DNA of 64,000 nucleotides from Candidatus Limnocylindrales bacterium (GCA_038915815.1 JBCLCL010000002.1:33521-97520), one strand, 5' to 3'. Shown: positions 4,200-58,392, counted from the stretch's first letter. Notes: generated by a model not told the origin, from the sequence alone. Program-made: numbers and translations.

Positions 4200-7094
4200 A
4201 TGCAGACCAGCCTCGCGCGGCGCCAGCGCCACCGACGGGCCACCGGACGGCGCCCCGAGGGCGGGCGCGGGTCGACCGTCGCCACGGCCGTCGGCGCCAC
4301 CATCGTCGTCCTGTTGGTGGGATCGTTCCTCGTCGGGTTCATCGGGTTGGCCGTGGTCGTGAGCGCGTACAACCAGTACGCGGCCGGGCTGCCGGAACCC
4401 GCCGCAGCCCTGAACGAGATCCAGTTCGAGCAGCAGACGATCGTCTACGACCGGACGGGCAAGGTCGAACTGGCCCGGCTCGGGGACCTCAAGCGCGAAC
4501 TCGTGGAGTTCGGCGATATCCCCGGCGAGGTCCTCGACGCGACGACCGCGATCGAGGACAAGGACTTCTGGAGCAACCCCGGCTTTGACCCGTTCGCGAT
4601 CGTCTCGGCCGGCATCGACACGGTCAGTGGACGGCCGCGTGGAGCCTCCACGATCACCCAGCAGCTCGTCCGGGCGCGGCTGCTTCCCCCTGAGGCCTTC
4701 GAAGGCTCCACCGTCGAGCGGAAGATCCGCGAGATCATCCAGTCGATCCGGCTGACCGAAGCCTTCCCAGGCCAGGCAGGCAAGGAACAGATCATCACCG
4801 CCTACCTGAATCTGAACTTCTACGGCAACCAGAGCTACGGGGTCAAGGCGGCCGCCAGGAGCTACTTCGGCAAGTCGCTCGACGAACTCAGCCTCGCGCA
4901 GGCCGCCATCCTGGTCGCCATCCCGCAGTCCCCGACCCGGTTCGACCTGGTCCGCAACGCCGACTCGATCTGTCTCGAGGACGTCCCCGAAGGCACCGAG
5001 TGCACGAAGTTCAAGCTGGTCGTGCCGCCCGGGACGGAGATCGTCCAGCGCCGCGACTACGTCCTGGACCTGATGAAGACGCGCAGCCCGCTGACCGGCG
5101 ACCAGCACACGGCGGCCGAATACGAGGTCGCCAAGGACGAGCCGGTCGAGTTGCGCCAGCAGGTGTCGGTCAACTGGAAGGCGCCCCACTTCGTCTGGCA
5201 GGTACTCCGCCAGCTGGGCCAGATCCTCTGCCCGGAGACCCCGGACACCTGCCCACTGGTGGATTCCGGCGGCTACCGGGTCACCACGACCCTCGACTGG
5301 GAGATGCAGAAGGTCGTCGACAAGTGGGTCTATGTCGCGGCCCGCGCGCCCAATTCCTCGGACCCTGAAGCGGTCCTGACCGCACGCAAGATCCCCGCGG
5401 CGGCCCAGCGCTGGATCCTGGGCCTCCGCGGCCGCAACATCCACAACGCCGCCGCGGCGGTCATGGACTACCGGACCGGCGACATCCTCGCCTATGCCGG
5501 CAGCGCCAGCTACATCTCCAAGGGAAACAAGACGTTCCAGCCGCAGTTCGACGTGCTGGCCGACGGCTGGCGACAGCCCGGATCTGCCATCAAGCCGATC
5601 GACTACGCGATCGGGATCGACGACAAGGCGATCACCGCCTCGACGATGCTGATGGACGTCGTGACCGACTTCGGCAAGGAGTACACGCCCACCCAGGCCG
5701 ACAAGCTCGAGCGCGGTCCCGTCCGCGTCCGCTCGGCCCTGCAGTTCTCGCTCAATATCCCGGCGATCAAGGCCACGATCAGGACCGGGCTGGACCGCGT
5801 CTTCGCCCGCACGAAGGACTTCGGGCTGACCTACCCGGACTCGGCGATCCCGGTCGTCTCGATGGGGATCGGGACGCTGGAGCTCCATCCGATCGAGTTG
5901 CTCGGGGCGTACGCCACGATCGCCGACGGCGGCGTTCGGGTACCCCGACGGACGATCGACACGATCATCGATTCCGACGGACGGATCGTCTGGCCGGTGA
6001 CCGACGTCGCCGAGAGTGGCGCGCGGGTGATCAACGCCGGGACCGCGTACATCATCACCGACATCCTGGCCGGCAATACCGACAAGAAGGTCAATCCCTA
6101 CTGGGGCAAGTGGGCCATCTTCGATGGCGACACCCGCCGCCCTGCCGCGTACAAGACCGGCACCACCTCCGACAATCGCGATGTCGCAGCCTATGGGTTC
6201 CTCGCCCCGCCGGCGGACGAGACGAGCCCTGCGCTGGCGGTCGGCGTCTGGATGGGCAACAGCGACAACAGCCCCAATGACGGGAGGTTGTCACTGGATA
6301 CCTCGGCGCCCCTCTGGTCGGCCATCCTGACCGAGATCAGCCAGGGTTTCCCGATCGCCCAGTTCGTCCCGCCGAGCGACCTTGAAAGGGCCGAGGTGGA
6401 CGCCTTCACGGGCCTCAGGCCCGGGCCGTTCACGACCCGGACGGTCGAGGAGATCTTCCTGCCGGGCACGGTCCCGACCCAGAAGGAGACGCTCCGGGTC
6501 GCGCTGCCGATCGATGAGGCGTCCGGCCTGCTCTGGCAGGAGGGTTGCCTCGGTCCGATGGTCACCCACGGGTTCTTCGATCTCTCCGCGGTCGAGGCGA
6601 ATTTCGAGAACTGGCAACAGGCGAATGCCGCCTGGGGCGCGCGTGCGGCGCGAGGCGCCGGCGTCAGCGGCGGGCCGGAGAAAACGCGGACGTCGTACTT
6701 CTACAACAACTCGTTCGCCCCGTTCGGGCGGACCTGGGGGGCGCCATTCGCGCCGACCGAGCTGTGCCCGGTCGTGTTGCCGCCTGCCCCACCTCCGTGT
6801 GATCCGTTCTTCGGCCCGTGCGAGCCACCTCCGTGTGATCCGGTCTTCGGCCCGTGCGAGCCACCTCCGGTCGCGGAGGGCATGCCGGTGCCGAACCTCC
6901 GATGCCTGACCCTTGAGGCGGCCGCTGATAGCCTGACCGGCGCCGGGTTCGCCTTGGGCGACGTGAAGCCGAGCGACCCAGGCCCCGACTTCGTCGTCTC
7001 AGATACCAGACCGGATGCCGGTATCCCACTGCCACCTGGCAGCAGCGTCGACCTGACACTCCGCGCCCGCTCGAAGATCCCCGCCTGCCCGTAA
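4200..7094 (+). CDS. class A penicillin-binding protein (transglycosylase/transpeptidase) with C-terminal Cys-rich repeat and PASTA domain
   Basis: The ATG at 4200 gives an Arg-rich cytoplasmic head followed by a TM helix (IVVLLVGSFLVGFIGLAVVV). GT51 motifs are EDKDFWSNPGFD and GASTITQQLV. The transpeptidase motif is PGSAIKP (SxxK). The tail PVPNLRCLTLEAAADSLTGAGFALGDV...VDLTLRA is PASTA-like. The 3996 ORF-track start would overlap tyrS and is rejected. Confidence 0.9.
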   Translation: MQTSLARRQRHRRATGRRPEGGRGSTVATAVGATIVVLLVGSFLVGFIGLAVVVSAYNQYAAGLPEPAAALNEIQFEQQTIVYDRTGKVELARLGDLKRELVEFGDIPGEVLDATTAIEDKDFWSNPGFDPFAIVSAGIDTVSGRPRGASTITQQLVRARLLPPEAFEGSTVERKIREIIQSIRLTEAFPGQAGKEQIITAYLNLNFYGNQSYGVKAAARSYFGKSLDELSLAQAAILVAIPQSPTRFDLVRNADSICLEDVPEGTECTKFKLVVPPGTEIVQRRDYVLDLMKTRSPLTGDQHTAAEYEVAKDEPVELRQQVSVNWKAPHFVWQVLRQLGQILCPETPDTCPLVDSGGYRVTTTLDWEMQKVVDKWVYVAARAPNSSDPEAVLTARKIPAAAQRWILGLRGRNIHNAAAAVMDYRTGDILAYAGSASYISKGNKTFQPQFDVLADGWRQPGSAIKPIDYAIGIDDKAITASTMLMDVVTDFGKEYTPTQADKLERGPVRVRSALQFSLNIPAIKATIRTGLDRVFARTKDFGLTYPDSAIPVVSMGIGTLELHPIELLGAYATIADGGVRVPRRTIDTIIDSDGRIVWPVTDVAESGARVINAGTAYIITDILAGNTDKKVNPYWGKWAIFDGDTRRPAAYKTGTTSDNRDVAAYGFLAPPADETSPALAVGVWMGNSDNSPNDGRLSLDTSAPLWSAILTEISQGFPIAQFVPPSDLERAEVDAFTGLRPGPFTTRTVEEIFLPGTVPTQKETLRVALPIDEASGLLWQEGCLGPMVTHGFFDLSAVEANFENWQQANAAWGARAARGAGVSGGPEKTRTSYFYNNSFAPFGRTWGAPFAPTELCPVVLPPAPPPCDPFFGPCEPPPCDPVFGPCEPPPVAEGMPVPNLRCLTLEAAADSLTGAGFALGDVKPSDPGPDFVVSDTRPDAGIPLPPGSSVDLTLRARSKIPACP
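6789..6869 (+). repeat. 36-bp in-frame tandem duplication (2.25 units) inside the PBP gene
   Basis: Units 6789-6824 and 6825-6860 differ at a single base (gttc versus ggtc). A 9-nt partial third unit follows. The repeat encodes PPPCDPFFGPCE / PPPCDPVFGPCE / PPP. Confidence 0.95.
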
Positions 7095-10141: not shown

Positions 10142-10729
10142 TCAGCGCAGCGGGTAGGCGGCCTTGATGCCGTCAGGGATGAACAGGCCGATGAGCATGA
10201 AGCTCGACGGGATCAGGGTGTTGCGGAAGAGGACGGCGAACTGGGTATGGTCGAGACCGCCCCAGAACTCACGCAGGAGTGGGAGTTCCTGGGGGTCCTG
10301 CGGGATGCCGGGGATGCGGAAGAAGGTGTCGAGGATGATCAGCACCATCCCGAAGATGATGGCCGCCTGCAGCAGGCCGAGGAATCCGCCAAGGATCTCG
10401 TCGGCGAACCTCGCCTTCCTGAACAGTTGCTGCGGCTTGTAGTAGGTCTGGACGACGAGGGCAAGCGCGACGGCCGATGCCGAGAAGATCGTCCCGAAGC
10501 CGATCATGTAGCTGTACTGCCTCGGGAACTGCGTCCAGTGGTCGGCCAGGAAACGACCGAACGTATCGAACATGCTCGCCGCAAGCAGGAACGAGAAGAG
10601 GATGGAACCGAGCCCGATCAACCGGCGGATCGTCCCCTGGGCGAAGCCCAGAACGAAGAAACCGATGAAGTACAGCACGATGAGCAGGTCCACGGTCCCG
10701 AACCCGCCCACGAACTCCCCGAGGTCCAC
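10142..10729 (-). CDS. cvpA: CvpA family membrane protein
   Basis: Four predicted TM helices. The N-terminus VDLLIVLYFIGFFVLGFAQGTIRRL is typical of colicin V production protein family members. The chosen GTG at 10729 is preceded by GGAGG at a 7-nt spacing. The longer ORF-track start at 10813 adds a non-membrane Arg/Ser-rich head. Confidence 0.8.
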   Translation of the reverse strand: MDLGEFVGGFGTVDLLIVLYFIGFFVLGFAQGTIRRLIGLGSILFSFLLAASMFDTFGRFLADHWTQFPRQYSYMIGFGTIFSASAVALALVVQTYYKPQQLFRKARFADEILGGFLGLLQAAIIFGMVLIILDTFFRIPGIPQDPQELPLLREFWGGLDHTQFAVLFRNTLIPSSFMLIGLFIPDGIKAAYPLR

Positions 10730-15997: not shown

Positions 15998-17833
15998 CTA
16001 GCCGACCCGCCGCTCACGCGATTCGGCAGCCAGTCGGTCGGCGAAGGCATCCCATGGTTCGGCCGGCTGCTGCTCCCCCGCGCGGGTCCGGGGTGACGCA
16101 GTCCGCGCCTCGATCTCGCGGTCGCCGAGCACGACCATGTACGGGATCTTCTGACCCTGGGCCAGGCGGATCTTGTTCTGCATCCGGTTGTCCGAGCCGT
16201 CCACCTCGACGCGCAGACCACGTGAGCGCAGGACCTCGGCGAACTCCCCGGCAGCGGGCAGATGACGATCGGCGATCGGGATGACGACCGCCTGGACGGG
16301 CGCCACCCAGAGAGGGAATGCGCCGGCGAAGTGCTCGATCAGGATGCCGATGAACCGTTCGAGCGAGCCGTAGATGGCGCGGTGGATGGCGATCGGACGC
16401 TGGGGCTGGCCCGTCTCGTCGATGTAGGTCAGGTCGAAGCGCTCGGGCAGCATCACCAGGTCCACCTGGATCGTCGCCATCTGCCACTCCCGGCCCAGGG
16501 CGTCGTCGATGTAGATGTCGATCTTCGGGGCGTAGAACGTACCGTCCCTGGGCTTGACCGAGTAGTTCCCGCCGGTCCGATCGAGGGCCTCGCGGATCAA
16601 CGTCTCGGCCCGTTCCCACAGGGCGGGATCGCCGAGCGCCTTGTCCGGCTTGGTGGCGAAGGCGAAGCGAGGCTCCAGGCCGAACCACCCGTACGCCTCA
16701 CGGACCTCGCCGAGCAATGCCTCGATCTCGTCGGCCAGCTGGTCCGGGCGGACGTAGAGGTGGGCGTCGTCCTGGATGAAGTGGCGGGCCCGGGTCAGTC
16801 CGCTGAGCGTGCCCGAGCGCTCGTTGCGATGAAGCCGGCCGTATTCGCTGAGTCGCAACGGCAGTTCCCGGTACGACCGCACCTTCGACCGGTAGATGAA
16901 CGTGCTTTCCGGGCAGTTCATCGGCTTGAGACTGAACGTCTGGCCTTCTGACTCGATCAGGAACATGTGGTCGCGATAGAGCTCCCAATGGCCGGATTCG
17001 CGCCAGAGTCGCTCGCTGACCAGGATCGGCGTGCTGATCTCCTGGTAGCCGCGTCGCTCCTGCAGTTCGCGCATCGCGCTTTCCAGGGTCCGCCACAGCC
17101 GCTGGCCCTTGGGGTGCCAGAAGGCTGAACCGGGACTGACGTCGTGGAAGCTGAACAGGTCCAGTTGGACCCCGAGACGGCGGTGGTCGCGCAGCTTGGC
17201 CTGCTCGCGGCGCCAGAGGTACTGCTCCAGCTCTTCCTGGCCGGACCAGACGGTGCCGTAGACGCGCTGGAGCATCGGTCGCTTCTCATCGCCGCGCCAG
17301 TAGGCCCCTGCGACGGCGAGCAACTTGAACGGGCCGATCCGACCCGTCGAGGCCACGTGCGGCCCCTTGCACAGGTCGACGAAGGCGCCGTGCTCATAGA
17401 CCGACGTCGACGGCATCGGCGTCCCGTCGCGCTTGGACTTCGCCGCCAGATCGTCAAGGATCTCCACCTTGAACGGCTGATCGCGCTCGACGAAAAAGGC
17501 ACGCCCTTCGCCGGGCGCCAGCTCCCGGTGGGCGAACGGGAGGTCCTCGGCAACGCTCTCCGCCATTCGTGCCTCGATCGCGGCCAGATCGTCCGGCGTC
17601 AGCGGCCGGGGCAGCGCAAAGTCGTAGTAAAAGCCATCGGCGATGGCCGGTCCGATGCCCAGCTTCGTCCCGGGAAACAGGTCCAGCACGGCCTCGGCCA
17701 TGACATGCGCCGCCGAGTGGCGCATCGCATCGAGCTCGCTGTGCGCGCCGGCATCGAGCAGCTCGTCGGCGGAGCCTCGATCTGGCGCTTCGAGGCCGAC
17801 GTCCTCCGCCTCGTCGATCCCCTGGTCCGTCAT
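15998..17833 (-). CDS. thrS: threonine--tRNA ligase lacking the N-terminal TGS domain
   Basis: The editing-domain motif MRHSAAHVMAEAV lies near the N-terminus. The class II core is RDHRRLG, FWHPKG, RELPLRLSEYGRLHRNE and QDDAHLY. An anticodon-binding domain follows. The ATG at 17833 is preceded by GGAGG at 5 nt. Confidence 0.92.
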   Translation of the reverse strand: MTDQGIDEAEDVGLEAPDRGSADELLDAGAHSELDAMRHSAAHVMAEAVLDLFPGTKLGIGPAIADGFYYDFALPRPLTPDDLAAIEARMAESVAEDLPFAHRELAPGEGRAFFVERDQPFKVEILDDLAAKSKRDGTPMPSTSVYEHGAFVDLCKGPHVASTGRIGPFKLLAVAGAYWRGDEKRPMLQRVYGTVWSGQEELEQYLWRREQAKLRDHRRLGVQLDLFSFHDVSPGSAFWHPKGQRLWRTLESAMRELQERRGYQEISTPILVSERLWRESGHWELYRDHMFLIESEGQTFSLKPMNCPESTFIYRSKVRSYRELPLRLSEYGRLHRNERSGTLSGLTRARHFIQDDAHLYVRPDQLADEIEALLGEVREAYGWFGLEPRFAFATKPDKALGDPALWERAETLIREALDRTGGNYSVKPRDGTFYAPKIDIYIDDALGREWQMATIQVDLVMLPERFDLTYIDETGQPQRPIAIHRAIYGSLERFIGILIEHFAGAFPLWVAPVQAVVIPIADRHLPAAGEFAEVLRSRGLRVEVDGSDNRMQNKIRLAQGQKIPYMVVLGDREIEARTASPRTRAGEQQPAEPWDAFADRLAAESRERRVG

Positions 17834-17930
17834 GTGCGCCTCCTGGAGAATCAAGACACCCCTCATCCGTCGACAGGACGAGAGGCGATCTCCCGTGGCG
17901 TTCCCGCTCGTTGCTGCTACGGCGATGTGG

Positions 17931-18007
17931 TGGTGGGCGACACTGGACTCGAACCAGTGACCTCTTGCATGTCAAGCAAGTGCTCTAACCAGCTGAGCTA
18001 GCCGCCC
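17931..18007 (-). tRNA. tRNA-Val (anticodon GAC), CCA encoded
   Basis: A hand-folded cloverleaf: GGGCGGC-TA-GCTC-AGCTGGTTA-GAGC-A-CTTGC-TTGACAT-GCAAG-AGGTC-ACTGG-TTCGAGT-CCAGT-GTCGCCC-A-CCA. Confidence 0.93.
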
Positions 18008-18115
18008 GATGTCGCCGGTTCCCCGTTCCGTTGGCCATGGATCCGTTGGCTCGCGAGTGTTCCACATCCGCGCCGAAGCCACGCCCGCGGGATCAAGGAG
18101 CCAGCGGCGAGCGGC

Positions 18116-18144
18116 ATCATACCCCGAGGCGCCCGGAGCGACAA
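18116..18144 (-). promoter_or_regulatory. sigma-70-like promoter candidate upstream of tRNA-Val/thrS
   Basis: The minus strand reads TTGTCG-(17 nt)-TATGAT, about 100 nt upstream of the mature tRNA-Val 5' end. Confidence 0.35.
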
Positions 18145-18202
18145 CGGCGCCCGACGGCGTGGTAGGGACATCCCAACGCCCGTACTGATCGGGCCGGAAT
18201 GA

Positions 18203-18344
18203 GCTGAGCGCCATGCGTCCGCCACGAGCGTGATGCTGGAGCGCATCATCCACGAGACATTTACGCTCGGTGGCCGCCGAGTCTCGACAGGACTCGGCCA
18301 GCGCCACGCTCATCTGTCCCGACATTGATGCTGTCCAGGATCAC
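18203..18344 (-). repeat. conserved intergenic element, copy A (candidate structured ncRNA)
   Basis: It aligns to 42878-43020 (plus strand) with 113 of 142 identities by hand count and one 1-nt indel. The flanks are unrelated. It contains the TGATGC-GCTCCA-GCATCA hairpin and other shared stems. Details are in the findings. Confidence 0.75.
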
Positions 18345-18450
18345 CCGGCTCACCGGGTCGGGCTCAGGGGCCCTGGCCCTCAGCGGCCTCACCCGGCGCG
18401 GACGATCAGATGCTTCCGACGGCACGGGACCGCGGGCGAAGCCGGGCGAA

Positions 18451-18470
18451 GCCGGGCGGATCCGCCCGGC
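18451..18470 (-). terminator. GC-rich palindrome just downstream of the acyltransferase stop
   Basis: GCCGGGCGGATCCGCCCGGC is a perfect 20-bp palindrome lying 17 nt after the stop at 18487. A U-tract is absent (TTCGCCC follows). Confidence 0.4.
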
Positions 18471-18486
18471 GTCGCCCCTGGCCCGG

Positions 18487-20613
18487 TCAGTGCGGGATCG
18501 GCAGCGCCGCGTCGAGCAGACCGGCCAGGGAGGCGGCGAAGGTGGCGGTCAGGTGGTGGTCGTCGCGCTGGACGATCATCTCCCCGACCACCGCCTGACA
18601 CGGATCGCCGGGACAGATCGCGTCGGACAGGTCGATCACGGTGGCAGCGGCAGCCTCGGCGGCGATCCGCTCGCGCACGAGTGGCCGGCGACCGAACGCC
18701 TCGATCCGCGCTGTCGCACAGCGGGTGATGTCGGCCAGGTTCTGCGACAGGCAGACCGGCACGTCAACGCGTGACGCCGGGCTATCCCCGACGATCGCGA
18801 TCGCGCCCGGGATCTGGTTCAACAGGCGGGCCATCGCCTCGCCCTGCCTCGTGGGATCGGCGTCGCCCTTGACCTGTGTGGGGAGCCAGCGGTCCGAGGA
18901 AACGATGGTCAGATCGGGCCGCTCGTCGATCAGGCGCTGCACGACGAGCGGCCGCCAGGCCTCGCACTCGGCGTACTGACGCTTGAGGATCGGCGAATAG
19001 ATCGGCAGGTCCACGAACACACATGACGCCTTGGTGAAGACCAGCAGACGCCAGCCGTGAGCCTGCGCGACCGCTTCGACCGCCGGGAACCAGTGCGCCG
19101 CATGGGAATCGCCGACGAGGGCCACGGTGAACGCACCGTTCGGATCGCCGTAGACGCAGTCGGGCGGCTTGCTTCCGCGGAGGCTCATGAAGCATCCGTC
19201 CGGGATGATTCGTTCGCGATCCGAGCGAGCCGTCGCCAGCGCTGGGCGGATCCCGGCGGGTAGCGGCCACGGATCCGGCAGGACCGCCGGATTGGTGGGA
19301 GCGCTCGGGAACAGGGCCACTGGCGAGGCGGTCGGCGCAGCGCTCGGACTGGCACCCGGTTCCGGGGTCGAATGAGCCTGCGTGGCGGTCGGCGCCGGTG
19401 TCGCGGAGGCGCCATCCAGCGACGGAGGCGTGGATCCCACGGGCGTCTGCGCGGCGCTCGCGGGCGCCGGTGATCCGGCAGGGGCACCCGATGGCACGGC
19501 TCCGACCGCCGCGACCCCGACCGCGGCGACCCGGCCGAGGCTGTAGTCGCCGATCCCGATGGCCATGACGGCCACCGCGGTGGCCGTGGTCAGCGCTGTG
19601 GCCAGCACGAGGCGCGGGCGGCGGATCCAGAACTGGCCACGTCTGAACGGTTCCTCGATCAGCCGCCAGCTGATGAAGGCGACCAGCACGGACGCCGCAC
19701 CGAGTGCACATCGAACCGCCAGCGGCAACGCCTCGCCGCTCGCCAGCACCGGGAGGACGAGGATCGGCCAGTGCCACAGGTAAAGCGAATACGAGATGCG
19801 CCCGATGAAGCGGACCGGTGCCAAGGTCAGGAGGGCCTGGACCGGCCCGCCGTGGCCGCCGCCGACGATCAACGCAGCAGCGCCCAGCGTGGGCAACAGG
19901 GCGGCGCTGCCCGGATATGGCGTCGCAAGGTCGATCAGCAGGAACCCCGCCAGGACGAGGCCGACGCCGAACCAGCCGACCGCGACGAGCACGAGACGCG
20001 GAACGCGGACGAACCACCCGGCTGCCACCGCCAGCAGTCCGCCGAGCGCGAGTTCCCAGAGCCGGCTCGGCAGCGAGTAGAAGGCCCACGGCGCGAAGGC
20101 GTCGGTCAGCCAGACGGCGAAGCCGAACGAGCCGGCGGCAAGCGCGCCCATCGTGAGCGCGCGACTCCAGCGAGCCTTGAGCGCGCCGAGAGCGACGATC
20201 ACAAGTGCCGGCCAGACCAGGTAGAACTGTTCCTCGACACCCAGCGACCAGAGGTGACGGAACGGCGAGGGATCGACATCGGCGAAGTAGTCGGTCGACT
20301 CCAGTGCGAAGCGCATGTTCCCGAGTGACAGCGCGGCCGCCGCACCGTCCTGGGCGATCGACGACATCCGGAGCGGCGCGATGGTGAGGGCAGCGACGAC
20401 CATCGTGACCGCGATCGTCGCCAGGACAGCGGGCAGGATCCGGCGCATCCGCCGCGAGTAGAAATGGCGCAGGTCGATCCGACCCGTCTGCTCGTACTCT
20501 CGGAGCAGCAGGCCCGTGATCAGGAAGCCGGAGATCACGAAGAAGATGTCGACGCCGCTGAATCCACCGCCCAGGCTCGGCAGGCCGACGTGGTACCAGA
20601 GGACCGCGAGCAC
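18487..20613 (-). CDS. acyltransferase family 3 membrane protein with C-terminal SGNH hydrolase-like domain (OafA/YrhL type)
   Basis: GVDIFFVISGFLITGLLL, multiple TM helices, SYSLYLWHWP, a Pro/Ala/Ser linker, then an SGNH-like VALVGDSHAAHW. The first canonical start is the GTG at 20613. Conserved EGLRAVAV lies upstream without a canonical start (see findings). Confidence 0.85.
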   Translation of the reverse strand: MLAVLWYHVGLPSLGGGFSGVDIFFVISGFLITGLLLREYEQTGRIDLRHFYSRRMRRILPAVLATIAVTMVVAALTIAPLRMSSIAQDGAAAALSLGNMRFALESTDYFADVDPSPFRHLWSLGVEEQFYLVWPALVIVALGALKARWSRALTMGALAAGSFGFAVWLTDAFAPWAFYSLPSRLWELALGGLLAVAAGWFVRVPRLVLVAVGWFGVGLVLAGFLLIDLATPYPGSAALLPTLGAAALIVGGGHGGPVQALLTLAPVRFIGRISYSLYLWHWPILVLPVLASGEALPLAVRCALGAASVLVAFISWRLIEEPFRRGQFWIRRPRLVLATALTTATAVAVMAIGIGDYSLGRVAAVGVAAVGAVPSGAPAGSPAPASAAQTPVGSTPPSLDGASATPAPTATQAHSTPEPGASPSAAPTASPVALFPSAPTNPAVLPDPWPLPAGIRPALATARSDRERIIPDGCFMSLRGSKPPDCVYGDPNGAFTVALVGDSHAAHWFPAVEAVAQAHGWRLLVFTKASCVFVDLPIYSPILKRQYAECEAWRPLVVQRLIDERPDLTIVSSDRWLPTQVKGDADPTRQGEAMARLLNQIPGAIAIVGDSPASRVDVPVCLSQNLADITRCATARIEAFGRRPLVRERIAAEAAAATVIDLSDAICPGDPCQAVVGEMIVQRDDHHLTATFAASLAGLLDAALPIPH

Positions 20614-41608: not shown

Positions 41609-42802
41609 TCAGCCGTCGTTGCCAAGCAGCGCGCGCGCGATGACGAGCCGCTGGATCTGCTGGGTCCCTTCGTAGATCTGGGTGATCTTGGCGTCGCGCA
41701 TCATGCGCTCGACCGGGAAGTCGTCGATGTAGCCATAGCCGCCCAGGACCTGGACGGCGTCCGTGGTGACCCGCATCGCCGCGTCCCCGGCCACGAGTTT
41801 ACACATCGCCGACCAACGAGCGGCGTCGGGCGAGCCGGCATCGATCTCGACGCAGGCCTTGTAGAGCAGCTGGCGGGCCGCTTCGGTGGCGGCATCCATG
41901 TCGGCCAGCATCGCCCCGATCAACTGGAAGTCGCCGATCCGCTGACCGAACTGGCGTCGCTCGGCCGCATAGCGCGTCGCGACCTCGAGGGCGCCCTGGG
42001 CGATCCCGACGGCCTGGGCGGCGATCCCGGGGCGACTGCGCTCGAAGGTTCGCATGGCGATCGCGAACCCGTCGCCCTCCACGCCGACCAGGTTGGCCGC
42101 CGGAACACGGACAGCGTCGAAGGCGAGCTCGGCGGTCGGGCTCCCGCGGATCCCCATCTTGTGCTCGAGGCGCGAGACGGAGAAGCCGGCTGCGGGGACT
42201 TCGACCATGAAACACGACATCCGTCGGTGACGAGGCGCGTCAGGGTCGGTGACGGCGAAGACCGTGATCAGATCGGCCACCGAGCCGTGGGTGATGAACC
42301 GCTTCGACCCACTGATGACGTAGTCGTCGCCGTCGCGCACGGCGCGAGTGCGGCCCGCCGCGGCGTCGGAGCCGGCCTCCGCCTCGGTCAGCGCGAATGC
42401 GATGAGGAACTCCCCGGACGCCAGCCTCGGGATCCAGCGGGCCTGCTGCTCGGGCGTGCCCGCCTGCAGGAGTGGCAAGGCGCCCAACGCGTGGACCGCG
42501 AGGATCAGGCCGGTCGTGGCACACGCTCGGCTCAGCTGCTCCACCGCCAGGCAGACCGAGAGCAGGTCTCCGCCCAGGCCGCCGTGCTCGACCGGGAATG
42601 GCAGGGCCAGGATGTCCTGGGCAGCCAGCAGCTGGCGCAGATCCTCGGGGAATTCGGCGGTACGGTCGATCTCCGCGGCGCGCGGCGCCACGCGCTCGTC
42701 GGCAACCACGCGGACGGCGTCGCGCAGGAGTCGCTGCTCCTCCGTCAACCGATAGGGGCCGTGGGTCGAGCTCGAGGCGGTCACCGCGGCCGATCGTAGC
42801 AC
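41609..42802 (-). CDS. acyl-CoA dehydrogenase
   Basis: LTEEQRLLRDAVR, FALTEAEAGSDAA, GSKRFITHG, QFGQRIGDFQLI and YEGTQQIQRLVIAR. The start is GTG at 42802 or GTG at 42784. Confidence 0.9.
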   Translation of the reverse strand: MLRSAAVTASSSTHGPYRLTEEQRLLRDAVRVVADERVAPRAAEIDRTAEFPEDLRQLLAAQDILALPFPVEHGGLGGDLLSVCLAVEQLSRACATTGLILAVHALGALPLLQAGTPEQQARWIPRLASGEFLIAFALTEAEAGSDAAAGRTRAVRDGDDYVISGSKRFITHGSVADLITVFAVTDPDAPRHRRMSCFMVEVPAAGFSVSRLEHKMGIRGSPTAELAFDAVRVPAANLVGVEGDGFAIAMRTFERSRPGIAAQAVGIAQGALEVATRYAAERRQFGQRIGDFQLIGAMLADMDAATEAARQLLYKACVEIDAGSPDAARWSAMCKLVAGDAAMRVTTDAVQVLGGYGYIDDFPVERMMRDAKITQIYEGTQQIQRLVIARALLGNDG

Positions 42803-42877
42803 CCGGCCGGGCCGAACCCTTGAGCGAGCATTCCGTGCGTCGTGGTCACGGCCGGCGGTTTCGATCCACTGACGCGT

Positions 42878-43020
42878 GTGATCCGTGCCGGCATCACGGT
42901 CGAGACAGATGAGCGTGACGCAGGCCGAGTCCTGTCGAAACTCGACGGCAGCCGTGCGTGGCTGGCTATTGAATGATGCGCTCCAGCATCAGGCCGCCGA
43001 CGGGCGGATGGACGCTCAGC
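42878..43020 (+). repeat. conserved intergenic element, copy B (candidate structured ncRNA)
   Basis: It is homologous to 18203-18344 (minus strand). It lies in the divergent spacer between the acyl-CoA dehydrogenase start (42802) and a small zinc-ribbon gene (43163). Details are in the findings. Confidence 0.75.
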
Positions 43021-43162
43021 CCCGACCCGCGGGACGGACGTTGCGACAGGTGCGTGCGGGGGCATGGTCCATCTTGCCCTTGGCCGGACCCCGCGCGTAC
43101 CCTGTTCGCAGCCGGCAGCCGCCGCTCCGAGGGCCGCGGCTCAAGCCAGGCGAGGTGCCGCC

Positions 43163-43384
43163 ATGGATCAGACGCAGCAACTCCTGGCGATGACGATCGC
43201 AGCTGGCGTCGGCATCCTTGCGACGCTCGTGATCCTGCGCAGGCAGCGGCGGGCCCAGCAACCGCCGCCCGAGTCGAGGTTCGCGGCCTCGACCGAGGGC
43301 GAGAAACTCTGCCCCGAATGCGGGATGGGGAGTCTCTGGACGGACGACCACTGCATCTCGTGCGGGGCGAAACTTCCGGGCTGA
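43163..43384 (+). CDS. small membrane-anchored zinc-ribbon protein (73 aa)
   Basis: The ATG at 43163 has GAGGTG 6 nt upstream. It encodes a TM helix (LLAMTIAAGVGILATLVIL), then RRQRR, then CPECG-(12 aa)-CISCG. It occupies otherwise empty space between convergent and divergent neighbours. Confidence 0.55.
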   Translation: MDQTQQLLAMTIAAGVGILATLVILRRQRRAQQPPPESRFAASTEGEKLCPECGMGSLWTDDHCISCGAKLPG

Positions 43385-49169: not shown

Positions 49170-49448
49170 GGGTCAGGCGAGGCCTCCATCGAGGTGGGTG
49201 GGTCGCGATGCCGCCATTATCGGGTCTCGGGGCGACCGTCGTCAGCGGCCGCAGGTGCGGGTACGCACAGATCCCCACCTGGCTCGACCAGGCGGTGATG
49301 CAGCGGGTGCATCATCTGGGTCGGTTGCACGCTCAGCGACGCGCCGTCTCCGCAAACAATGGGAGGCGCCACGCACGAATATGGTGGTGACGATGCCCAC
49401 GCGCATCAGCACCTTCGGAATTCGCCCATGTCGCGCTCCATCGAGCCT

Positions 49449-58197: not shown

Positions 58198-58392
58198 TCA
58201 GGTCGACTCGACGCGCAGCTCGGTCCTCCCGGGCGTGAGGATCGGCACCGACGGCGAGGCTTTCAGTCAAGCCCCTGCCGGCCGAGACCAGAAGGGCTCA
58301 ACTCCTGGCCTGCCGAAATGCCGCTTGGCAGGTCGAATGCTCGGACAGCGAGTTTGTTCCGACACTCGGAGTGCCATTTCCTGAGGGGAATA

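Follow-up and report, generated by a model that had tools for sequence, protein, structure and literature searches.

The intergenic DNA upstream of the tRNA-Val gene of a Candidatus Limnocylindrales bacterium contains a unit of 142 nt which recurs, with changes, some 25 kb away, and the question that it raises is whether such a unit is an RNA gene, a regulatory site or a piece of mobile DNA. The window considered here is a 64,000-nt stretch of assembly GCA_038915815.1 (JBCLCL010000002.1:33521-97520), with a G+C content of 70%, and same-species MAGs at NCBI (GCA_0389151xx to GCA_0389163xx) are 96-99.6% identical to it. Homologues of the proteins encoded around the unit carry Chloroflexota or Candidatus Limnocylindrales labels, from which the host is not an actinobacterium. 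A preliminary description, based on the sequence of the window by itself, recognised two copies of the unit, A and B, and proposed that they represent a novel structured RNA with a multi-stem junction.

Copies A and B

Copy A occupies 142 nt on the minus strand (18203-18344), between an acyltransferase gene and the tRNA-Val promoter. Copy B occupies 143 nt on the plus strand (42878-43020), in the divergent intergenic region between an acyl-CoA dehydrogenase gene on the minus strand and an open reading frame for a 73-aa zinc-ribbon membrane protein on the plus strand (43163-43384). The two copies are 79% identical (blastn E 5e-30) and are the sole pair in the 64-kb window that is similar at the sequence level. 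Aligned end to end, they are identical at 113 of 143 columns, with one 1-nt indel near the 3′ end, which recovers the colinear alignment that had been counted by hand. Similarity between the flanks, over 150 nt on each side, is not above that of shuffled controls; the sequences outside the copies are thus unrelated, as had been stated, and the unit is sharply bounded. The substitutions between A and B are of mixed types (G>A 6, A>G 5, T>G 3, and others).

Conservation between the copies had been called blocky. The named blocks are all present, but their arrangement is not beyond chance. The three longest stretches of identity measure 19, 16 and 14 nt, and when the 30 differences are placed at random, the longest run reaches at least 19 nt in 24% of the trials and the sum of the three longest runs is equally high in 6%.

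Every item of the genomic context given earlier for copy A can be located. The unit is preceded by the AT3/SGNH acyltransferase gene (18487-20613, minus strand) and a G+C-rich palindrome (18444-18477), and is followed by a promoter-like site for tRNA-Val, TTGTCG-17-TATGAT (18116-18144, minus strand), by tRNA-Val itself (17931-18007, minus strand) and by thrS (15998-17866, minus strand). The promoter-like site lies outside the element and is conserved in relatives L058, L059 and L060.

The 73-aa protein encoded next to copy B is predicted to have a single membrane helix and has, at its C-terminus, a zinc-ribbon-like CxxC...CxxC motif. Its 72 homologues, of about 71-111 aa, all lack a Pfam domain, and its gene adjoins the acyl-CoA dehydrogenase/ETF operon in the three relatives examined. 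It is a conserved uncharacterised small protein of the lineage. On the other side of the same intergenic region, by the start of the acyl-CoA dehydrogenase gene, the motif CGATCGTAGCACC (42794-42806) is kept in relatives L055 and L056, in which the rest of the intergenic DNA is unalignable; this motif may be a leader or an operator.

Palindrome doublets and copy C

Each unit is built on two 18-bp imperfect palindromes of the form TGAT(G/C)C-N6/7-G(C/G)ATCA, whose starts are exactly 95 nt apart in A, in B and in a third copy, C. The pair lies at element positions 2-19 and 97-114 in A and B and is absent from the preliminary description. In copy A, the first palindrome, P1 (18326-18343, minus strand), reads TGATCC-TGGACA-GCATCA and has one mismatch to TGATGC-N6-GCATCA, while the second, P2 (18231-18248, minus strand; TGATGC-GCTCCA-GCATCA), is perfect. 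In copy B, P1 (42879-42896, plus strand) reads TGATCC-GTGCCG-GCATCA, also with one mismatch, and P2 (42974-42991, plus strand) is the same perfect TGATGC-GCTCCA-GCATCA. A and B agree at each of the 24 positions of the arms and differ at four of the six positions of the P1 loop. Beyond P2, the two copies have a tail of 27-28 nt in common. The tail of A (18203-18229, minus strand, 27 nt) ends in ATGG-CGCTCAGC and is about 71% identical to that of B.

Copy C is a diverged third member, found by a palindrome-doublet scan (TGATGC-N6/7-GCATCA, with at most one mismatch). It lies on the minus strand at 49296-49409, in the interval that separates the genes for a pyridoxal-dependent decarboxylase and a DUF4332 protein. 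Its P1 (49391-49408, minus strand) reads TGATGC-GCGTGG-GCATCG, the last arm being GCATCA in three of four loci examined from the same species, and its P2 (49296-49314, minus strand) reads TGATGC-ACCCGCT-GCATCA; the 95-nt distance between the starts is here measured on the plus strand. The scan gives six palindrome sites in the window, which form three doublets, all of them intergenic, compared with 0.27 sites and 0.03 doublets in shuffled windows. About 110 kb of DNA from related species, scanned for the palindrome pattern, has no site.

Neither nhmmer nor a covariance model made from A and B finds copy C, and the same two methods detect no extra copies over 358-669 kb of DNA. Copy C keeps the palindrome arms despite a spacer that has diverged beyond detection by nhmmer or the covariance model. 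Its spacer has a weak similarity to that of A (z 2.9, 6/1000 shuffles), and its minus strand has GATGATGC...GCATCAC in common with A. The most robust conserved features of the three copies are the palindrome arms and their spacing. Elsewhere in the window, three matches to TGATGC-N6-GCATCA with two mismatches each are grouped in 210 nt of coding sequence inside the CvpA/colicin V gene (10165-10374, plus strand); this cluster is probably due to chance, and it has no score by nhmmer or the covariance model (E 9.5).

The three copies lie within 31 kb, each in an intergenic region and 130-220 nt upstream of a gene start, B being within a divergent promoter region. All three are oriented toward the next downstream gene, an arrangement with a chance of about 1 in 8. 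The downstream units are tRNA-Val/thrS for A, the 73-aa open reading frame for B and a DUF4332-molybdopterin operon for C.

Coding potential and searches of sequence collections

The two open reading frames that overlap the copies (17972-18325, minus strand, and 42885-43193, plus strand) both exist as described. No frame of A or B matches Pfam to E 10, and a profile of the six frames of both copies has no match among 5.8 billion predicted proteins. On these results the unit is indeed non-coding, and its description as a discrete, dispersed, non-coding element is borne out. Several protein-based or protein-linked candidates can be set aside. A histidine-kinase pseudogene is rejected by the absence of any Pfam frame or six-frame profile match. 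The N-terminus of a PIN toxin, suggested by ‘VILDS..DE..AGRV’ in frame 1, has no Pfam or profile match either, and the changes between A and B fall mostly at codon position 2 of this frame. A type I toxin-antitoxin repeat is rejected since the six-frame translations are without a conserved hydrophobic peptide. The template/variable pair of a diversity-generating retroelement is not in accord with the mixed substitutions, and no reverse transcriptase is present among the window genes examined.

Two large collections were searched with one exact block each, the 19-mer ATGATGCGCTCCAGCATCA for genomes and the 5′ block for metagenomes, from which diverged copies would escape: the 19-mer has 49 exact matches among 185,579 species genomes, each only 19-26 nt long, and the 5′ block has four chance matches, of 21-22 nt, among 241 million metagenome records. 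Neither scan adds a member to the family. Copy A has 25 identical bases in common with eight Streptomyces loci (L009, L011, L026, L029, L030, L037, L046 and L048). In L029, the one locus inspected, the match is inside a histidine-kinase gene, at the ‘VMLERIIHNLLENA’ box (‘VMLERIIH’, the start of the ATPase N-box). The 19-mer hits are a coincidence of a common high-G+C coding word and not homology, and the Streptomyces matches illustrate how such words can fill an exact 19-mer scan.

BLAST searches of plasmid and phage collections give no match. Viral scans give chance or unrelated matches, one of them inside a coding region of related phage contigs. The others fall in a repeat of a giant-virus MAG in IMG/VR, GVMAG-M-3300027892-69 (L083 and L087-L091; 34-38% G+C). 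This repeat is abundant, forms the hairpin TGATGCCC-NN-GGGCATCA between inverted flanks of greater length, and occurs as doublets on six stretches of the bin. It is probably an unrelated MITE-like family that has only the palindrome arms in common with the element.

Folding and structural conservation

Positions 1-115 of copy A (18230-18344, minus strand) form one long, imperfect hairpin; it has 42 pairs, its centre is GCCGAGTC/GACTCGGC and its folding energy is -58.8 kcal/mol (z -5.0 relative to shuffles). The spacer of A is self-complementary, and nhmmer aligns the copy with itself in reverse complement (E 7e-6). Between P1 and the reverse complement of P2, 15 of 18 positions agree. The inverted ends, positions 1-19 against 97-115, match at 16 of 19 positions in A and at 12 of 19 in B, the right end being non-terminal in that homology between the copies runs on for another 27-28 nt.

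The A-type hairpin is not maintained in B, where 12 of its 42 pairs are broken and none is compensated, which gives B the appearance of a decaying copy. Imposed on B, this hairpin has an energy of -30.3 kcal/mol, compared with a minimum free energy of -46.2 kcal/mol for the same 115 nt. The ends of C pair (z -2.8). Across the three copies, a formal count of complementarity between the P1 and P2 loops is not above shuffled controls, and the inverted orientation of P1 and P2 is clear in A only. Taken as whole units, A (z -2.4) and B (z -1.4) have different minimum free energy folds, and these z-scores are modest.

A structure common to A and B finds little further backing. On both strands, the RNAalifold consensus of the two copies does no better than alignments with shuffled columns (z -1.36 and -1.51). 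The helices proposed in the preliminary description can be drawn in both copies, but 19 of their 22 pairs are invariant and no double change occurs, so that compensatory change contributes nothing in their favour. Among 47 predicted pairs there is one double change, and the covariation term is positive. Two pairs of the GCCGAGTC/GACTCGGC register are lost in B, and two pairs of the alternative GTCGA/TCGAC register are broken in a same-species variant, L053. The G-U pairs, which had been taken to support one orientation, are ambiguous in this respect, since the opposite-strand consensus keeps six pairs through G-U on that strand only.

No sigma-70-like promoter or intrinsic terminator is found within or at the ends of A or B. 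At the gathering score, Rfam 15 recognises three tRNAs in the whole window and nothing else. Searched to E 10, the regions of A and B have no credible match, the best (E 0.16) being a 15-nt fragment outside the element, and the region of C, searched to E 1, has none. The statement that the unit matches no known riboswitch, ribozyme or sRNA family therefore holds. T-box leaders are expected upstream of thrS in some phyla, and such a leader is rejected here for want of an Rfam match. The proposal of a novel structured RNA with a multi-stem junction fares less well: the consensus z-scores are weak, compensation is lacking, no promoter or terminator signal accompanies the unit, and relatives are without the element. 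The preliminary description had itself named an absence of homologues with compensatory changes as refuting the idea, and by that measure it is refuted. No test supports a conserved structured RNA at A and B.

Relatives and sister strains

The element is missing from all three loci in the relatives examined. At the locus of B, L055, L056 and L057 have shorter, unrelated intergenic DNA of about 100-290 nt without the element, and the small downstream protein of these three relatives is 82%, 70% and 66% identical to that of the window. At the locus of A, L058, L059 and L060, whose thrS is 86-90% identical, keep the tRNA-Val promoter and have other DNA in place of the element; they become similar to the window again near 18148-18151. 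In L058, where the acyltransferase neighbour is the same, a gene for a 186-aa protein stands in place of A. At the locus of C, the two flanking genes abut in L055 and copy C is absent, which makes C lineage-specific.

Within the species, copy A is identical in MAG locus L061 and is absent at its position in L062, one of the two sister-strain loci examined, the entire region upstream having been replaced there by an integrase island. Copy B occurs, with a few polymorphisms, in each of the five loci examined from the species (L050-L054), and copy C in all four, with one polymorphic arm position. The strains sampled (five of five with B, four of four with C) have no presence/absence polymorphism attributable to excision. 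Copy B is polymorphic at 5 sites per 143 nt, compared with about 6 per 235 nt in the flanking intergenic DNA; since its polymorphism is no lower than that of its flanks, B is not visibly protected. A further 17 kb of same-species DNA and about 16 kb of strain-specific islands contain no additional copy.

Gene content around the tRNA genes varies among these genomes. GCA_038915655.1 has two integrase-bearing islands at tRNA genes. The island at L062:1-7015 encodes a phage integrase and an AAA_25 protein and abuts the 5′ end of tRNA-Val, displacing the promoter, copy A and everything upstream. The island at L074:12944-21617, beside tRNA-Pro (the window equivalent ends near 58358), encodes an integrase, HTH proteins and a Prim-Pol. 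Upstream of the tRNA-Val promoter, in the interval that corresponds to 18150-18490 of the window, the DNA differs in every relative: L058:6317-6877 is the 186-aa gene, which is lipoprotein-like, L059:6604-9642 contains Tad pilus genes and L060:6316-9632 contains two large hypothetical genes. These differences suggest that the region upstream of the tRNA-Val promoter is a hot spot of gene turnover. Some 5-6 kb outside the left edge of the window, sister strains differ by 12-83 nt in the length of the intergenic DNA that separates the genes for EF-G and a Trp-repressor-like protein (L067-L072, about 4440-4915), and in L070 the same region has an IS (DDE_Tnp_1, 570 aa) and an extra His_biosynth gene.

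Comparison with known repeats

REPINs, which are doublets of REP sequences, consist of conserved REPs around a variable spacer (PMC3337134) and are moved by RAYT transposases (Bertels and Rainey 2011; PMC3337134; PMC3116915). The present units resemble them in several ways. They are extragenic, and each has a pair of short, imperfect palindromes set apart by a spacer of tens of bases, which is conserved less well than the palindromes themselves; decay is visible in older copies and the family is confined to a single lineage. In copy A, the unit can form a single long hairpin. REPINs are present in tens to hundreds of copies, whereas three of the present units, which sets a minimum for the family, were seen; no RAYT gene occurs in the DNA examined and the palindrome sequence is unrelated to described REPs. 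The 27-28-nt tail past the second palindrome, co-inherited in A and B, is another difference, and the systems described are mainly from proteobacteria, the host here being a MAG of the Chloroflexota.

The units are also like MITEs in being 100-150 nt long, non-coding and intergenic, in their strong hairpin potential, in their patchy occurrence among close relatives and in the inverted ends of about 19 nt in copy A (16/19). Unlike MITEs, they have no target-site duplication, and the homology of A and B extends past the right inverted repeat. Nor was a parent IS with matching ends found, the DDE_Tnp_1 IS of L070 being without such a palindrome.

Elements derived from IS200/IS605 have subterminal hairpins at both ends, make no target duplication and have asymmetric distances between the hairpins and the ends. 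Compared with this general picture, the unit is similar in its subterminal hairpins, lack of target duplication and asymmetric ends, and different in that its copies have no shared 5′ target tetranucleotide and no Rfam guide-RNA match, and no TnpA or TnpB gene was seen. The Sib/Ibs (‘QUAD’) repeats of E. coli occur as a few intergenic copies of about 140 nt within a narrow lineage. The unit has a similar length, low number of intergenic copies and narrow distribution, but it does not have a conserved small hydrophobic open reading frame, promoter or terminator signals or structural conservation.

Origin and maintenance of the doublets

Conserved arms with a variable spacer, a hairpin, an extragenic position, restriction to one lineage and signs of decay together make up a REPIN-like anatomy. 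Based on this anatomy, the chances are about even that A, B and C belong to a lineage-restricted REPIN/MITE-like family of extragenic palindromic repeats that is partly decayed. Such a unit would have spread as non-autonomous mobile DNA, by means of an enzyme encoded elsewhere in the genome. The enzyme would recognise the palindromes; a RAYT/IS200-IS605-type tyrosine HUH transposase, which would act on single strands folded as hairpins, is one example. The copies seen today would then be, for the most part, decaying passengers and not RNA genes. Evidence against mobility comes from the number of copies seen, only three in the 64-kb window, from the tail that continues past P2, from the lack of excision polymorphism among the strains sampled and from the loop complementarity, which does not exceed that of shuffled controls. 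The borders of A, B and C have no direct repeat that would represent a target-site duplication, and the gene tables of about 100 kb of same-species DNA list no suitable transposase, including any with a Y1 domain.

Two arrangements on a larger scale were also considered. With A and B inverted, they might be the ends of a 24.8-kb composite transposon or of an invertible segment, but the intervening genes are a syntenic core in relatives without the repeats, no recombinase is found among the genes examined between A and B and there is no target duplication. A role as a marker of the replication origin or terminus is rejected since there is no GC-skew switch.

Functional explanations begin from what the copies have kept. 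One possibility is that the copies are paralogous genes for small RNAs, or leaders that act in cis, each transcribed in the direction of the next gene and working through its hairpins. This would account for discrete, non-coding and sharply bounded units, for the co-orientation of all three copies with the downstream gene, for hairpin arms kept in every copy and for the stable folding of A (z -2.4 for the whole unit and -5.0 for positions 1-115). Such genes are nevertheless unlikely here: they have no Rfam family, the consensus z-scores are -1.4 to -1.5 on both strands, and the helices receive no compensatory support, with B breaking 12 of the 42 pairs of the A hairpin and the L053 strain variant breaking the central hairpin. 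The units lack promoter-like and terminator-like signals, relatives with the same neighbouring genes are without the element and polymorphism is not reduced. Alternatively, the doublet may be a cis-regulatory DNA module, at which a dimeric or tetrameric protein binds the in-phase palindromes and loops the DNA upstream of three transcription units. A palindrome of 6-N6-6 geometry, as found here, is typical of the sites of helix-turn-helix dimers; the spacing of 95 bp, about nine helical turns, is the same in three copies although the spacer of C has diverged, one loop varies freely between conserved arms, and the copies are 130-220 nt upstream of gene starts, B in a divergent promoter region. 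The downstream units, however, are functionally unrelated (translation, a small membrane protein by fatty-acid oxidation genes and molybdopterin synthesis), and no regulator gene is adjacent. Since the operons are retained in related species that have no such sites, these genes do not need the palindromes. The constant spacing may reflect descent with few indels, and one arm position is polymorphic within the species. A looping module, too, is improbable.

The copies could also be inert leftovers of local duplication, in which a fragment was copied by recombination or repair within 31 kb and has neither mobility nor function. The clustering of three copies within 31 kb, with none in 17 kb beyond the window, the statistically uniform divergence of A and B and the neutral appearance of the polymorphism are what such an origin would produce. 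Uniform neutral decay, though, would not be expected to leave the arms of C intact with its spacer at the edge of detection. Three sharp-ended intergenic insertions are also hard to obtain by segmental duplication, because the genes between the copies are syntenic core genes in relatives, and this origin is quite unlikely. There is likewise a rather small chance that the doublets are kept in place for a function, either as a new lineage-specific long-hairpin RNA made from each locus or as a portable ‘paired-operator’ module, at which a protein would loop about 95 bp of DNA upstream of unrelated operons. What speaks for functional maintenance is that copy C keeps the arms and their exact spacing although its spacer has diverged almost completely, and that all copies face the downstream gene. 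As a family of extragenic palindromic repeats, the three copies are best filed as a known kind of object, of which they are a new low-copy example in Limnocylindrales-like Chloroflexota.

Biological significance

If the units are mobile repeats, they are an ordinary object in a poorly studied uncultured lineage. They open no new RNA class, and they would carry greater weight only if the palindromes were bound or transcribed in place. Copies A and B are inverted relative to each other, with 24.5 kb of core genes between them, and could support an inversion of this segment. Repeats of this kind are useful as strain markers and act as breakpoints in the assembly of MAGs, and they can provide a lead to the enzyme responsible for their movement.
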